This document shows, piece by piece, positions 5,273-34,475 of a stretch of DNA of 64,000 nucleotides. The DNA is from an uncultured Bacilli bacterium (GTDB lineage Bacteria; Bacillota_I; Bacilli_A; RF39; UBA660): contig CANQEJ010000001.1 in the NCBI GenBank assembly GCA_947594925.1, positions 7,837 to 71,836 of the forward strand, read 5' to 3'. The notes beneath the pieces are model-generated. The model searched no databases and was not told where the DNA came from. It was given only the letters and a program-made list of their open reading frames with translations. Both the position numbers and the translations under genes were made by a program. How positions within the stretch are numbered: the stretch's first letter is position 1; each line of letters opens with the position of its first letter.

Positions 5273-5323
5273 ATGTCTAAAAATATCGTTTTAATGTCTA
5301 AAATGTATTTTCTGCCATATAAT
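5273..5323 (+). promoter_or_regulatory. LytTR-type binding site (two 10 bp direct repeats ATGTCTAAAA with a 21 bp period) plus a TATAAT -10 box upstream of agrB
   Basis: Repeats at 5273-5282 and 5294-5303; TATAAT at 5318-5323. Confidence 0.5.
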
Positions 5324-5428: not shown

Positions 5429-6031
5429 ATGAAAAAGAAATTTCTAGATTATGCCATGCAACAAATACAAACTAATAATACATATGACGAAATAAAATTA
5501 GAAGAATTAAGATATGGACTTGAAACATTTTATATGTTAGTAACTAAATTATTAGTTTCAATTTTAATTGCTATTATTTTAGGAATTTTTAAAGAATTTG
5601 TGCTTTTTCTAATATTCTACACTCCCTTGCGTAGTTTAGGATTTGGCTTTCATGCAAAAAATAGTTTAGAGTGTTGGATCATAAGCATACCTTTATTTAT
5701 ATTAATTCCATTAGGAATAAAATATTTAAATTTTAACCTGTTATTAATTCAAATATGTTTAATTTTAAGTACTATTTCATTTTTGTTTTTTGCTCCCGCA
5801 GACACGAAGAATAAACCACTAATTAATAGCAAAAAAAGATTACTAAATAAAAGTATTTTAGTAATCGTCAGTATTATATATTTAATAATTACTATTTTTA
5901 TTAAACAAAATTTAGTCTTAAATGCTATCTTTTTTGCAAGTATTTGGCAAGCAATATGTGTAAATCCTTTGACGTACAAATTATTTGGTCAGCCTTTTAA
6001 TAATTATAAAACTTATTTAACAGAGGTTTAA
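5429..6031 (+). CDS. agrB: AgrB-family membrane peptidase that processes the AgrD propeptide
   Basis: Polytopic membrane protein; the catalytic pair is conserved in FHAKNSLECW (His then Cys seven residues later, as in S. aureus HAPSSFWC); FAPADTKNKP matches AgrB YAPAATKKKP. Confidence 0.85.
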   Translation: MKKKFLDYAMQQIQTNNTYDEIKLEELRYGLETFYMLVTKLLVSILIAIILGIFKEFVLFLIFYTPLRSLGFGFHAKNSLECWIISIPLFILIPLGIKYLNFNLLLIQICLILSTISFLFFAPADTKNKPLINSKKRLLNKSILVIVSIIYLIITIFIKQNLVLNAIFFASIWQAICVNPLTYKLFGQPFNNYKTYLTEV

Positions 6032-6081
6032 ATATATTAATATAAATTTAAACAAAATTTTTAAAAAGGAGGTATAGTTAC

Positions 6082-6195
6082 ATGTTTTCAAGTATTTTAG
6101 CCAGTATTGGTGAACTTTTCTCAAAAAGTGCCACTAGCTTTAGTTGGTTTTGGTATCATGATGAAACTAAATGTCCAAAATCTTTAATTAAATAA
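6082..6195 (+). CDS. agrD: AgrD-like autoinducing-peptide precursor (37 aa); absent from the supplied ORF track
   Basis: ATG at 6082 lies 10 nt after the ribosome-binding site AAAGGAGG; sequence MFSSILASIGELFSKSATSFSWFWYHDETKCPKSLIK has an amphipathic leader, an aromatic core and a charged PKSL tail; it sits directly after agrB. Confidence 0.65.
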   Translation: MFSSILASIGELFSKSATSFSWFWYHDETKCPKSLIK

Positions 6196-7467
6196 TTACG
6201 AAGAAATAATTAGTTTAATTGTTACAATAAATAAATTACTAATTATTTCTTTTTTTGTTTTTATATTATTATCAGATATTTTATTAATGTAATCTAGTCC
6301 TATTCCACTTTTAATCTTCTTTGTAGAATATTGCTTAGTACCTATTTTATTTATATCTAAGGTATCATTAAATGTATTAATTATCTTAATATCTATATCC
6401 TTTCCGTTTTGAACTATATTAATAAATAAACATTTTTCTTTAGTTTTTAAAGTGGCTTCAATCGCATTATCTAATGAGATGCCAACTATATCACATAACT
6501 TTGAATACAATTTCTTGTTAATTTTATTAAATGTATCAAAATTAACTGTACTTTTTATATCAAAATTAATATTTTTATTATTAATTGTATTCATTTTATA
6601 AAAAATTAAACCTTGCAAACCCTTTGGAATATTAGTCATTTTGATAACAATATTGTATTCAGAATTATACTTTTTCAGTTTTTCTTCAATTAATTCTCTA
6701 ACATCAGAATCAACATAAGTTTTAATTGCTGCCAAGTCATTATTTAAATTATGTCTAAGAGTACTATAATCTTCAGCAATTTGTTCATAAGCCTTTATAT
6801 TCTTTAATAATACTTCATTTTCCATTGATATTCTTTGTTTTTTCAAAAACATATTTAAAATAATTAAAATCATCGCCATTATCGAGATAATAGAAACTAT
6901 AATAACAAAAAATATTTTATAATCTTTATAATTTTCTCCATACACTATTGTAAACAAATTAATTATGATAATTACTATTCCAAATAACATTTCGATATTT
7001 AATCTATCTTTAATTTTATTATTGATTTTAAAAATAACATTATGCAAAAGTAACACTAACAAATATAAAACACTCGCAAATATAATTGTAATTATTGTTT
7101 TATACCAATAATTATCATTTACTATAGTTATATTAGAAGAAATTAATGATAATAATCCCGCAAAGACGAACTCTACAAATATAGAAACAACTGAAATCAT
7201 AAGTGTTATCAATATAGTATCAGATATTTCCTTTTTATAAATAATTTTAAACTCTATAATTATTAAAGATAAAGTACAGAAGATTCTAAAAAAATTATTA
7301 AAATATAAATTTGTAAACATACTGATAGTAGATAATATTAGGATTAATAAAAAATTTGTAATTTTTTTATTATTTGACACACTAGACGTGCATTTTTTAA
7401 AACATAATGTATGAATTATATAAGAATAAATTTCGCTCATGTATCCTAGAATTAATTCAATAGTCAT
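6196..7467 (-). CDS. agrC: AgrC-like sensor histidine kinase (polytopic N-terminus, C-terminal GHKL ATPase domain)
   Basis: About six transmembrane segments, then a His-kinase core with G-box (GIGLDYINKIS); its stop overlaps the start of the upstream LytTR regulator. Confidence 0.7.
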   Translation of the reverse strand: MTIELILGYMSEIYSYIIHTLCFKKCTSSVSNNKKITNFLLILILSTISMFTNLYFNNFFRIFCTLSLIIIEFKIIYKKEISDTILITLMISVVSIFVEFVFAGLLSLISSNITIVNDNYWYKTIITIIFASVLYLLVLLLHNVIFKINNKIKDRLNIEMLFGIVIIIINLFTIVYGENYKDYKIFFVIIVSIISIMAMILIILNMFLKKQRISMENEVLLKNIKAYEQIAEDYSTLRHNLNNDLAAIKTYVDSDVRELIEEKLKKYNSEYNIVIKMTNIPKGLQGLIFYKMNTINNKNINFDIKSTVNFDTFNKINKKLYSKLCDIVGISLDNAIEATLKTKEKCLFINIVQNGKDIDIKIINTFNDTLDINKIGTKQYSTKKIKSGIGLDYINKISDNNIKTKKEIISNLFIVTIKLIISS

Positions 7468-8168
7468 ACTACCTCTTCCTTATATTTTTTAGATAATAAA
7501 CTAATTTCTTCATTATTATCTAATAAAATCTTCCCGTTTTTCCAATCATATCTACTTACTCTATCTGTATTAACAATACAAGAACGATGCGTTTTCTTAA
7601 AACGACTATCTAACTCTTTTAAAACTTCACTAAATGTCATATTAATTTTAAAAACATTTTTAGTTGTCTTAATAATTAACTTTCGTTCATCTTTGTCTCG
7701 ACAAATATATAAAATATCTTTCATATAAATACGTAAATTAATTTGATTGTTTCGATATTTAAATACCTTATTATCTACTTTTTTACTTAAAATTAAATTT
7801 AAACAATCACTTAATCTTTTTTCCATATCATCAAATTTTTCAATAAACTTAAATACTTTTAAAACATTATTATAAACTTTTTGTTCATAACTTGTGTGAT
7901 TAGTTAAAAATATAATTTCACTATCCCAATCATTTTCTCTGATTTTTAAAGCAATATTAATACCCGTTATTTTACTTTTCAAACATATATCTAAAATATA
8001 AATTTTTCTTTCAGACAAATCTTCTATCTCTTTTAATAAACCATCATCACATTTATTAAAAAATAGCAATTTTATTGGTTCTTCATATTTAAATAAAAAA
8101 GGACTAATAATACTCTGAGTTTTAAGTTTTTCTTTTTCTTCATCTTCGACAACAATAATTTTTGTCAT
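7464..8168 (-). CDS. agrA: LytTR-family response regulator (AgrA-like)
   Basis: Receiver domain (MTKIIVVEDEE...) plus a C-terminal LytTR DNA-binding domain; start moved to the ATG at 8166-8168 behind an AAGGGAG ribosome-binding site. Confidence 0.8.
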   Translation of the reverse strand: MTKIIVVEDEEKEKLKTQSIISPFLFKYEEPIKLLFFNKCDDGLLKEIEDLSERKIYILDICLKSKITGINIALKIRENDWDSEIIFLTNHTSYEQKVYNNVLKVFKFIEKFDDMEKRLSDCLNLILSKKVDNKVFKYRNNQINLRIYMKDILYICRDKDERKLIIKTTKNVFKINMTFSEVLKELDSRFKKTHRSCIVNTDRVSRYDWKNGKILLDNNEEISLLSKKYKEEVV

Positions 8169-8238
8169 TAGTTCAACTCCCTTTATATTTAAATGATTAT
8201 AACACATTTTCTCTATTAGCAAAATAAAAATAATAGTT

Positions 8239-8838
8239 TTAAGCTATTATTTGGTTTAATTTTTCTATTAAATAAAAATCGCTATTATGGTAGACAAAAA
8301 CTTTGATAGGCACTTGTTCTTCTAGCTTTATTCCCAGTTGTTTTAAATCACTCGCATCTCCAATTAGAAATAATTCACTAGATTTTAAATTACTCTTAAT
8401 TAATATAACTATACTCTTTAAAAAATCATTAAAAATATGATAATCGAAAAAATAACTTTGTTCTTGCTCGGTTAAAATAGCATAATTTGCCGTTACATTT
8501 AAAGTCGGTTTTTCTAATAAAGTATTATAAGTAATAAATTTAATATGATTAAAAGATAACTTCTCTAAAATAGATGTTAATAATTCTTTATCACTTTTTA
8601 AGTAATTAGGAAATTCTAAAACGGTAATATTACGTCCCATTAAAGAATCATTAAGTTTATTCTTTTTGATTATTTTTTGCATATAACGATAAAAACTGTC
8701 AGTCTTAGCTACTCTATTATGGATAACTATATCTTTAGTTATTTCTTCTTTATATATTTGATTTTTTAAACATAAATATACATAATTATCCGTTATTATT
8801 AATCCTAAATTGTTTTTCAAAATATTCACTCCTATCAA
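8239..8838 (-). CDS. Hypothetical protein (199 aa)
   Basis: Long ORF co-oriented with the flanking genes; no family recognised. Confidence 0.5.
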   Translation of the reverse strand: MIGVNILKNNLGLIITDNYVYLCLKNQIYKEEITKDIVIHNRVAKTDSFYRYMQKIIKKNKLNDSLMGRNITVLEFPNYLKSDKELLTSILEKLSFNHIKFITYNTLLEKPTLNVTANYAILTEQEQSYFFDYHIFNDFLKSIVILIKSNLKSSELFLIGDASDLKQLGIKLEEQVPIKVFVYHNSDFYLIEKLNQIIA

Positions 8839-28044: not shown

Positions 28045-28127
28045 TTTGTTGATTAAATTATTTTACTTTTATTTTTAAAAAAAGTGGTATACAATGAAGA
28101 TGTTATTAAGGTAGTGGGGTGATAGGG

Positions 28128-29480
28128 ATGAGTAATGAAAATTTATGGGAAGATTTTCTTGATATTATTTGTAAGAAAACTAATCCTGTTTCTTTTAATA
28201 CTTGGTTTAACAATATCACCTTACAAAATATAGATGAGAATAATATAACAATAAAAGTTCCTTATGCTATGCATAAAAAAGTTTTAGGTGATAATTATTA
28301 TTCTTTAATTGAAGATGCTTTTATGTCATTAACAGGAATTAACTATGATATAAATTTTGTTTTAGAAGAAGAAATAACGGAAAAGAAAGATAATACCGAA
28401 ATAATTAATTTAAATAAAGAAAAAGAAAAGGTCTGGGAATCTAATTTAATTCCAAGTTATACTTTTGATAATTTTGTTGTTGGAGACACTAATCGTTTTG
28501 CGAAAACCGCAGCAGTTGCTGTCACAGAACAACCTGGTAAAATATATAATCCTTTATTTATCTATGGTAAAAGTGGGTTAGGGAAAACGCATTTAATGCA
28601 TGCCATTGGTAATCAAATTATGAAAACTACTAATTTAAAAGTTTTATATACAACTAGTGATATGTTTATGAACGACTTTACCGGTATTGCTAAAAATGAT
28701 GGTAACAATTTAGAATATGCAAATCTATTTAAAGAAAAATATCGTAATGTTGATGTATTAATTATCGATGATATCCAATATTTAGTAGGAGCCGAAAAAA
28801 CTCAACAAGAGTTTTTCCATACTTTTAATGCTTTGCATCAAGCTAATAAACAAATAATTATTAGTTCTGACCGTTCTCCAGATGATTTAAAAAAATTAGA
28901 AGAACGTCTAAGAAGTCGATTTACTTGGGGCCTTCCGGTTGATATTTATCCACCAGACTTTGACCTGCGTTGTCGGATTTTAAAAAATAAGATTAAAAAT
29001 TTAGATATTGCTAGCTTAATAGAAGAAGATGTTATCGAATATATTGCTAATTCTTGTGATAATGATGTCCGTTATTTGGAAGGAGCTATTACTAGATTAT
29101 GCGCCTATGCGGCAATGACTGTTCCTAAAGAAATTAATATGGAATTTGCTAGTGAAGCTTTAAAAGATTATATAACTAAAAATATCTATGATAACGGAGA
29201 TATCCCTAGTATTCAAAAAGCTGTCTGTGAATATTATGGTATTACTGTTGATGAACTAAAATCAAAAAAGAGAAGTAACAAAATTGCTTATCCCAGAATG
29301 CTGGCCATGTATTTAGCACGGATGCTTACTGATGAATCTTTTCCTCGTATAGGTTTAGAATTTGGAGGAAGAGACCACTCAACTGTAATTCATGCTTGCG
29401 ATAAAATTGAACAAGATTTAAAAACAGATGAACAGTTAAAAGAAATAATAAAAACTATAAAAAATAAAATAACTTGTTAA
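28128..29480 (+). CDS. dnaA: Chromosomal replication initiator DnaA
   Basis: AAA+ Walker A GKSGLGKTHL; C-terminal DnaA-box-binding domain; start placed at ATG 28128 (MSNENLW). Confidence 0.97.
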   Translation: MSNENLWEDFLDIICKKTNPVSFNTWFNNITLQNIDENNITIKVPYAMHKKVLGDNYYSLIEDAFMSLTGINYDINFVLEEEITEKKDNTEIINLNKEKEKVWESNLIPSYTFDNFVVGDTNRFAKTAAVAVTEQPGKIYNPLFIYGKSGLGKTHLMHAIGNQIMKTTNLKVLYTTSDMFMNDFTGIAKNDGNNLEYANLFKEKYRNVDVLIIDDIQYLVGAEKTQQEFFHTFNALHQANKQIIISSDRSPDDLKKLEERLRSRFTWGLPVDIYPPDFDLRCRILKNKIKNLDIASLIEEDVIEYIANSCDNDVRYLEGAITRLCAYAAMTVPKEINMEFASEALKDYITKNIYDNGDIPSIQKAVCEYYGITVDELKSKKRSNKIAYPRMLAMYLARMLTDESFPRIGLEFGGRDHSTVIHACDKIEQDLKTDEQLKEIIKTIKNKITC

Positions 29481-29611: not shown

Positions 29612-30730
29612 ATGAAATTTACCATTGAAAAAAATATTTTATTAGAAAATTTAACTTATGTAACTAAAGCAATCTCAATTAAAAACATAATACCTATCTT
29701 AAATGGTATTAAATTTGAATTAACAGATACGGGTTTAGCATTAACTGCTAGTGATTCTGAATTAACCATTAAAACATTTATCTCTGAAAAAGACATTACT
29801 AAAATAGAAAAAACAGGAACTATTATTATTCAAAGTAAATTTATAACTGATATTATCAGAAAGATGCCATCTGATACAATTAACTTTGAAGTTATTGATG
29901 GTTTAAAAATAAAAATATACACAGACAATAATCAGTATAATTTAAATTGTTTAGACCCAAAAGAATATCCAACTTTAAAATTAGAAGAAAGTAAAACTCC
30001 TCTTACTATCAAAAGTGATATTTTTAAAGAGTTAATTAATCAAACATCGTTTGCTATATCTACCCAAGAATTAAGACCTATTTTAACTGGTATTAATTTT
30101 AAAATAGTAGGGGACTTATTAGAAGTTGTGGCAACAGATTCTTATCGTTTAGCAAAGAAAAATATTCATCTTGAAGAAGCTATTAAAGAAGATGTTAACA
30201 TTGTTATTCCTGGAAAGAATTTAATTGAGTTTGAAAAAATCTTAGGAGAAGATGATGATTTAGAGTTACATATCTTTAATTCGAAAATTTTATTTAAATA
30301 TAAAAATATTTTATTTCAAAGTAATTTATTAAATGGAACTTTCCCTAATACAACTAATTTAATTCCAACTGAGTTTGAAATTATTGCTAAAACTAGTTTA
30401 AGAGATTATTTCTCTGCTATAGATAGAGCATCTTTATTAACTCAAGGTAAAGATAAGAATATTGTTAAAATGAAAATAGATAATAGTAGTATGATTATTA
30501 ATTCTTATGCATCAGAAATTGGTAAAGTTGAAGAAAAAGTATTAGTTGATATTGACGAAAAAGCTAAAATAGATATTTCCTTTAGTGCTAAATATATGTT
30601 AGAAGCTTTACGAACTATTAAAGATAAAGAAATTTTAATTCTTTTAAATACAGATGTTAAACCAATTGTTATTAAATCGGTTAATGATGAATCTCTAATT
30701 CAATTAATATTACCAGTAAAAACTTATTAA
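29612..30730 (+). CDS. dnaN: DNA polymerase III beta sliding clamp
   Basis: 372 aa; three-domain clamp; synteny. Confidence 0.95.
   Translation: MKFTIEKNILLENLTYVTKAISIKNIIPILNGIKFELTDTGLALTASDSELTIKTFISEKDITKIEKTGTIIIQSKFITDIIRKMPSDTINFEVIDGLKIKIYTDNNQYNLNCLDPKEYPTLKLEESKTPLTIKSDIFKELINQTSFAISTQELRPILTGINFKIVGDLLEVVATDSYRLAKKNIHLEEAIKEDVNIVIPGKNLIEFEKILGEDDDLELHIFNSKILFKYKNILFQSNLLNGTFPNTTNLIPTEFEIIAKTSLRDYFSAIDRASLLTQGKDKNIVKMKIDNSSMIINSYASEIGKVEEKVLVDIDEKAKIDISFSAKYMLEALRTIKDKEILILLNTDVKPIVIKSVNDESLIQLILPVKTY

Positions 30731-31471: not shown

Positions 31472-34475
<3,004 letters not shown>

Follow-up and report, generated by a model that had tools for sequence, protein, structure and literature searches.

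In the stretch of DNA analyzed here (the window, 64 kb of an uncultured Bacilli bacterium), a 37-codon open reading frame (ORF) that directly follows agrB is very probably a genuine agrD gene and, as such, encodes the signal precursor of a complete peptide quorum-sensing system of the agr type. Its product carries a serine, Ser21, in the register that most related peptides fill with the canonical ring-forming cysteine, and the signal predicted from it is a lactone built on a Trp/Phe-rich core. The evidence is drawn from family models, from the organization of related loci, and from a census of the ring position across related peptides.

An AgrD-family peptide encoded directly after agrB

The sequence-only reading had drawn attention to a 37-codon ORF between agrB and a convergent kinase gene, preceded by a perfect ribosome-binding site. 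The coordinates, frame, and neighbors of this ORF were confirmed, and the ribosome-binding site is indeed present (Table 1). The gene starts 50 nt 3' of agrB on the same strand. We refer to seven loci whose AgrB is 56 to 66% identical to that of the window as the near clade; the ORF itself, an AGGAGG at the same distance before it, its frame, its length, and its place behind agrB are shared by all seven. In the tail codons of these genes, changes are mostly in the third position (CCA/CCT, TCT/TCA, TTA/CTT, and TGT/TGC). Gene calls for an identical 37-amino-acid product exist on at least 11 public contigs, which come from several samples, and the context never varies. The length of the ORF is itself uninformative because short ORFs are abundant in DNA of 24 to 27% GC, with dozens of 25 to 50 amino acids in the ORF list of the window.

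Table 1. Features of the agr locus in window coordinates, with the Thr-type agrD genes of related loci in the last row
Feature	Position	Strand	Details
Direct repeat TGTCTAAAA-N12-TGTCTAAAA, candidate LytTR regulator binding site in the agrBD promoter	5274..5303	+	Exact repeat, 21-bp period
TATAAT, candidate -10 box	5318..5323	+	14 nt after the second repeat
agrB, membrane cysteine protease/cyclase	5429..6031	+	PF04647, E 3.3e-35
agrD ribosome-binding site AAAGGAGG	6065-6072	+	9 nt between GGAGG and ATG
agrD, 37 codons	6082..6195	+	ATG 6082, TAA stop 6193-6195; TIGR04223; homologues follow agrB in every related locus
agrD leader M1-F20 (predicted)	6082-6141	+
agrD core S21-H26, SWFWYH (predicted)	6142-6159	+
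agrD follower D27-K37, DETKCPKSLIK	6160-6192	+
Hairpin and U-run, candidate intrinsic terminator of agrBD	6198..6262	+	Detected by folding
AgrC-like sensor histidine kinase	6196..7467	-	NF046015 (AgrC) E 7.7e-8 over residues 37-403; weak HATPase_c match
AgrA-like response regulator (receiver and LytTR)	7464..8222	-	PF04397 (LytTR) E 2e-14; NF046049 (AgrA) E 9.1e-17
Thr-type agrD loci	L001 4654-4767; L002 4652-4765; L003 4426-4542; L016 2443-2559; L017 3154-3270

The translation, MFSSILASIGELFSKSATSFSWFWYHDETKCPKSLIK (37 amino acids), has the tripartite layout that had been claimed for it, with an amphipathic leader (hydrophobic moment of 1.28 versus 0.55 in shuffles; p ~0.005), a short core with Ser at the nucleophile position, and an acidic follower with a conserved Pro. 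The boundary between leader and core is placed where the register shared with Cys-type relatives would put it.

A search against AgrD family models had been proposed as a check, and its outcome depends on the model. Against the NCBIfam model TIGR04223, named "AgrD family cyclic lactone autoinducer peptide," the window peptide scores 24.1 bits, above the curated cutoff of 19 (E 2.9e-5), and residues 2 to 37 align with profile positions 3 to 38 of 38; an E value of 0.01 or better is reached by only 6 of 11 near-clade peptides. The staphylococcal-type Pfam model of AgrD, PF05931, gave no match to the window peptide at E values of up to 10. PF05931 is a narrow model, for which a few Cys-type relatives carry a precomputed match, and the missing match is no argument against membership in the broader TIGR04223 family. 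Public gene callers predict the ORF but give it no name, which the NCBI model would supply. Membership in the AgrD family, as originally proposed, is supported by the curated model, by the adjacency to agrB, and by more than 120 related peptides.

Partner genes and synteny of the locus

The FGFH75...C82W motif of AgrB is invariant in five near-clade AgrBs. H75 and C82 lie seven residues apart, as do His77 and Cys84 of Staphylococcus aureus AgrB, which we take to be the catalytic pair of that enzyme. A PDB sequence search with AgrB or its profile found no solved AgrB structure.

The kinase is built from a polytopic N-terminal sensor and an HPK10-type kinase core, in which the H-box (LRHNLNND), the N-box (LDNAIEA), and GIGL are conserved. 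As the scores of kinase and regulator fall far below the staphylococcal equivalog cutoffs, we call the two proteins AgrC-like and AgrA-like and not orthologues. The regulator, called with 234 or 247 amino acids in public annotations, probably starts at an internal ATG. Between its gene and that of an M23 peptidase, a 199-amino-acid ORF (8239-8838, minus strand) without a Pfam match recurs at the same place in near-clade loci with 35 to 50% identity, and it may be cotranscribed with the regulator and kinase genes.

A genome scan with AgrB gave 15 loci, nearly all in metagenome-assembled genomes of uncultured gut Bacilli (rabbit, mouse, and Hadza human), and a scan of metagenome contigs with an AgrB alignment gave two further loci. 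The sequence-only reading had looked to a conserved small ORF beside agrB in related genomes, and such an ORF is present directly after agrB in every locus from both scans. Furthermore, the order hpf-csp-agrB-agrD, followed by the convergent kinase, regulator, orf, and M23 peptidase genes, recurs in each of the 17 related loci that were examined, and the same synteny is seen in L025 and L027, which were found independently and have Ser and Thr, respectively, at the ring position.

Within this shared framework, identity to the window is uneven. It is 94 to 100% for csp, 71 to 91% for hpf, 81 to 85% for the M23 peptidase, and 59 to 70% for the regulator, and it falls to 56 to 66% for AgrB, 46 to 66% for AgrD, and 33 to 37% for the kinase, in which near-clade orthologues share 19 to 28% of the sensor half and 41 to 45% of the kinase half. 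This is the familiar hypervariability of agrB, agrD, and the sensor part of agrC that accompanies diverging signal-receptor specificities, with the sensor half of the kinase lowest.

Several further observations concern these loci and the window at large. In L014 (4001-4581), AgrB matches in two overlapping pieces (residues 1 to 137 and 121 to 194) and the frame ends after 145 amino acids, which points to a frameshifted gene, a pseudogene, or an error of assembly. The window also contains dnaA (28119-29480), dnaN (29612-30730), and recF (31472-32572), together with a sign flip of the GC skew near 28 kb; these indicate that the window includes the chromosomal replication origin, at a distance of about 22 kb from the agr locus. 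The only Rfam match at gathering level in the window is the small bacterial SRP RNA RF00169 (38016-38113, plus strand; 53.4 bits).

The predicted ring-forming residue

A profile of near-clade peptides retrieved 181 peptides at E values of up to 10, and 120 of these were read; members are already labeled "cyclic lactone autoinducer peptide" in several sources. We aligned 126 related peptides on the start of the acidic follower (D/E-E) and counted the residue six positions upstream (position -6), which is Cys in 95 peptides, Thr in 19, and Ser in 9; the other three have Cys at -7. Apart from these three, no peptide among the 126 has a residue at -6 that could not serve as a nucleophile. Ser21 of the window peptide falls at -6, in the register of the canonical Cys, and this register supports its assignment as the homologue of the ring-forming Cys. 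The earlier proposal that Ser replaces Cys at the ring position is supported by this register, in which the homologous residue is S21 and not S19.

In the 28 hydroxyl-type peptides, -6 is S or T without exception, and ring positions 2 to 6 vary. An S or T fixed at -6 among varying core positions is the pattern that selection for a nucleophile predicts. The codons point in the same direction: the nucleophile is encoded by AGT in the window, by TCA (Ser) in L005, and by ACT in the Thr neighbors, and such differences indicate that the hydroxyl group is selected, as opposed to the shared ancestry of one codon.

The register also bears on whether another residue might close the ring, either Ser19 or Thr18, which would give a larger ring, or the tail residue Cys31, if cleavage occurred further downstream. 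Ser19 and Thr18 are likewise hydroxyl residues, S or T is common at their positions in the clade, and nine-residue rings such as that of GBAP are known (PMC12312760); Cys31, for its part, is invariant across the subfamily. However, -6 alone aligns with the Cys of the family and holds S or T in 28 of 28 hydroxyl-type peptides, whereas N, A, V, and P occur as well at positions -8 and -9, and Cys31 is equally present in the 95 peptides with a canonical Cys, where it sits beside Pro inside the conserved follower motif. Closure through any of these three residues is therefore quite improbable, and Ser21 is the preferred nucleophile.

As had been pointed out before, the sole Cys of the window peptide, C31 (6172-6174), lies directly before PKSL in the follower that is predicted to be removed. 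In the near clade, D, E, C, P, S, and L of the follower pattern D-E-x-x-C-P-K-S-L are invariant, and DEPECPKSLIK, with the Cys included, recurs as the usual follower in a large AgrD subfamily whose ring nucleophile may be Cys, Ser, or Thr and most of whose members keep the canonical Cys. Since Cys-type peptides share the Cys before PKSL, it is a trait of the follower and not a replacement nucleophile. That the tail Cys compensates for loss of the ring Cys had been suggested by the first 15 loci, and this idea was dropped when about 95 peptides were found to carry both cysteines. The residue could have a role in recognition by AgrB or in something else.

Taken at face value, an agrD gene without its Cys could also be a decayed or chance ORF from which a signal is no longer made, given that Cys is the norm at the ring position and that short ORFs are frequent in AT-rich DNA. 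Against this stand the S or T residue maintained across a diversifying clade; the conserved ribosome-binding site, frame, length, and tail, the codons of which have changed synonymously; the intact catalytic motif of AgrB, kinase, and regulator; the conserved repeats of the promoter; and the Ser-type autoinducing peptides (AIPs) proven functional elsewhere (PMC5322536). Decay or chance is, on this evidence, barely credible.

Threonine at the ring position in related peptides

The least ordinary result lies mostly outside the window: the commonest ring-position residue in the near clade is Thr, which accounts for 19 of the 28 hydroxyl-type peptides. Thr-type peptides include P0129 to P0136, P0138, P0143, and P0152, with P0143 and P0152 outside the near clade, and the peptide of L002 reads ...STF-TWWLLA-DEPECPKSLLK. 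The AGT codon of Ser in the window is one step from ACT for Thr. In a neighbor-joining tree of AgrB, which is rough and without support values, the Ser-type L025 and the Thr-type L027 stand separately among Cys-type lineages. There is, in our estimate, an even chance that the ring nucleophile of the AIP varies within this lineage of gut Bacilli, with repeated changes among Cys, Ser, and Thr at a single orthologous agr locus on the chromosome.

The searchable literature, which is limited and in which absence is no proof of novelty, yielded no description of a Thr-linked AIP. If AgrB does close rings through Thr, the signals of these relatives would be threonine-linked AIP lactones, and the clade would present a natural series on the tolerance of AgrB for O- versus S-nucleophiles, in which one could also ask whether linkage chemistry affects the specificity or lifetime of the signal. 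The window locus is thus an entry point to Thr-type relatives that may extend the known chemistry of AgrB.

Ring size and final form of the signal

In S. aureus AgrD, whose follower is DEVEVPKEL, five residues separate the end of the ring from the conserved Pro. The same spacing of five residues is found in Clostridium thermocellum (PMC5322536). Applied to the window peptide, this ruler would place the end of the ring at H26 and give a six-residue ring, SWFWYH. In some relatives, a one-residue insertion in the tail (DEPAECP) breaks the ruler; it was accordingly dropped as decisive for ring size, and SWFWY stays a candidate for the same reason. The predicted lactone ring therefore has six residues (SWFWYH) or five (SWFWY). 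The calculated [M+H]+ values are 907.389 for cyclic SWFWYH and 770.330 for SWFWY, and 1054.457 and 1141.489 for the N-extended forms F-SWFWYH and SF-SWFWYH. The sequence-only reading had named SWFWY and SFSWFWY as candidates, of which the first coincides with the shorter predicted ring and the second would correspond to a ring with a two-residue exocyclic tail.

The N-terminal junction differs between the two groups of peptides. In Cys-type relatives, (Q/N)-A precedes the Cys in 86 of 95 peptides, whereas the hydroxyl clade has (S/T)-F before its S or T. As Phe and not Ala precedes the nucleophile here, N-terminal processing may differ from that of the Cys-type relatives.

It is conceivable, if unlikely, that the mature signal is not a lactone at all. 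The leader could be cut directly before Ser21, and an O-to-N acyl shift could then yield a head-to-tail (homodetic) cyclic penta- or hexapeptide, like the clostridial cAIPs. Such a route would share its precursor and the AgrB step with the lactone route. Tail-free thiolactone AIPs are converted to lactams within minutes in Ruminiclostridium, and the same work leaves open what becomes of Ser lactones without a tail (PMC8251862). The strongly conserved (Q/N)-A, a small-residue junction, that precedes Cys in most Cys-type relatives resembles a site for cutting directly before the nucleophile, but the junction of the Ser/Thr clade is (S/T)-F, not Ala, and the lactone of Staphylococcus pseudintermedius is stable and retains a four-residue exocyclic tail (PMC12312760). 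The sequence itself fits either form of the signal, of which the lactone is the likelier.

Upstream repeat, probable terminator, and a proposed circuit

About 150 bp 5' of agrB, a unit of ~9 to 10 nt, TGTCTAAAA, occurs twice with a spacer of 12 bp. LytTR operators, such as those of AgrA, usually consist of nine-base repeats with a 12-base spacer. With up to three mismatches allowed, the 64-kb window contains no second pair of this kind, and no other target promoter with the repeat was found in it. In L001, L002, L003/L004, L005, L016, L017, and L006, too, the repeat precedes agrB by about 150 bp; it is conserved in all near-clade loci and in L006, and spacers and flanks differ. The direct repeat is a candidate autoinduction site that the regulator would bind, and its conservation upstream of agrB is in keeping with a possible autoinduction loop. 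The TATAAT downstream of it might serve as a -10 box; in a consensus scan for promoters and terminators, it was not significant in this AT-rich DNA.

The same scan missed the hairpin that follows agrD because its stem is AT-rich, and the structure was detected by folding. With a ΔG of -16.3 kcal/mol (z of -3.8; none of 200 shuffles as stable) and UUUUUUUGUUUUU after it, it is a probable intrinsic terminator of agrBD. Of five relatives folded, L001, L002, L003, and L005 have a comparable hairpin and U-run after agrD, and that of L017 is weaker (z of -1.4). In 6193-6262, the stop codons of agrD and of the kinase gene adjoin with zero intergenic bases, and the hairpin is built from codons of the kinase C terminus (KKEII...LIISS). 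As it lies inside the 3' end of the kinase gene, about 60 nt would be common to the two convergent transcripts.

The gene, its family membership, the Ser21/Cys register, the locus architecture, and the conserved repeats are observed here; by homology with staphylococcal, enterococcal, and clostridial systems, we infer the chemical steps, the ring size, the N-terminal cut, and the regulator binding that would connect them. The amphipathic leader, from M1 to about F20, would bring the 37-residue precursor to the membrane, where AgrB, through His75 and Cys82, may recognize the acidic, Pro-containing follower DETKCPKSLIK and cleave it off, with the new C terminus presumably held on AgrB as an acyl-enzyme thioester. 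Attack on this thioester by the side-chain hydroxyl of Ser21 would then form the lactone ring, either SWFWYH or SWFWY, and a second protease would trim the leader during export. The Trp/Phe-rich cyclic peptide could in turn be sensed by the convergently encoded, polytopic AgrC-like kinase, and phosphorylation of the LytTR regulator by this kinase would lead to binding at TGTCTAAAA-N12-TGTCTAAAA and to increased transcription of agrBD, closing an autoinduction loop.

When placed in context, the locus represents a complete and apparently functional agr-type circuit in an uncultured, low-GC gut lineage, with assemblies from rabbit, mouse, and human gut, and it supplies a defined candidate signal together with a candidate operator site. 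In practical terms, the SWFWYH or SWFWY lactone offers itself as a target for synthesis.

Comparison with known systems

Ser in place of Cys is a rare but documented variant, with Ser-lactone AIPs described in several studies (PMC12312760, PMC5322536, and PMC8251862). They include RIPT[STGFF] of S. pseudintermedius and GBAP of Enterococcus faecalis (PMC12312760), as well as the Ser lactone of C. thermocellum, which was confirmed by LC-MS/MS (PMC5322536); AgrD2 of Clostridioides difficile, NSA[SSWVA], is listed with Ser at the ring position in the table of a primer (PMC12312760). A six-residue ring is known in Clostridium acetobutylicum (PMC12312760, PMC4916163), and large-scale mining of gut AIPs already uses a "Cys or Ser" rule (PMC11953309). 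Six-residue rings, split agrBD and agrCA operons, and the absence of RNAIII have all been documented before. Given these precedents in linkage, ring size, and operon structure, the window locus leaves knowledge of AIP chemistry unchanged.

Close counterparts are the AgrD peptides of S. pseudintermedius and Staphylococcus intermedius, which share with the window peptide its predicted processing by AgrB, Ser at the Cys position, hydrophobic aromatic ring residues, and an AgrC/AgrA-type pair (PMC12312760). S. pseudintermedius, however, has a single agrBDCA operon with RNAIII, a five-residue ring, and a four-residue exocyclic tail. In the window, by contrast, agrBD is convergent with the regulator and kinase genes, the acidic tail begins six residues after the predicted nucleophile, the core is rich in Trp, and no RNAIII-like effector is evident.

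Similarly, the E. faecalis system, in which FsrD gives rise to GBAP (QN[SPNIFGQWM]), relies on a Ser lactone formed by an AgrB homologue, and FsrA, the LytTR regulator of this system, acts directly, with no RNAIII involved (PMC12312760). It differs in its nine-residue ring and in its fsrBDCA operon.

The arrangement of agrBD and agrCA as separate units has counterparts in C. acetobutylicum and C. difficile, as do the candidate six-residue macrocycle, in C. acetobutylicum, and the Ser, which is listed for AgrD2 of C. difficile (PMC12312760, PMC4916163). The window locus differs from these in its core, in its uncultured, low-GC gut Bacilli host, and in its follower motif, DE(P)xCPKSLIK, with Cys.

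Another parallel is offered by AgrD of C. thermocellum (Clo1313_2818), the source of a tail-free Ser-lactone pentapeptide, which likewise uses a Ser nucleophile in a member of the Bacillota outside the staphylococci and in which the five-residue gap from the ring end to the conserved Pro of the follower matches the distance from H26 to P32 in the window (PMC5322536). The junctions differ, with Ala before Ser in C. thermocellum and Phe before Ser here. Moreover, agrD of C. thermocellum is an orphan without neighboring agrB, agrC, or agrA, whereas the window locus has all four genes.
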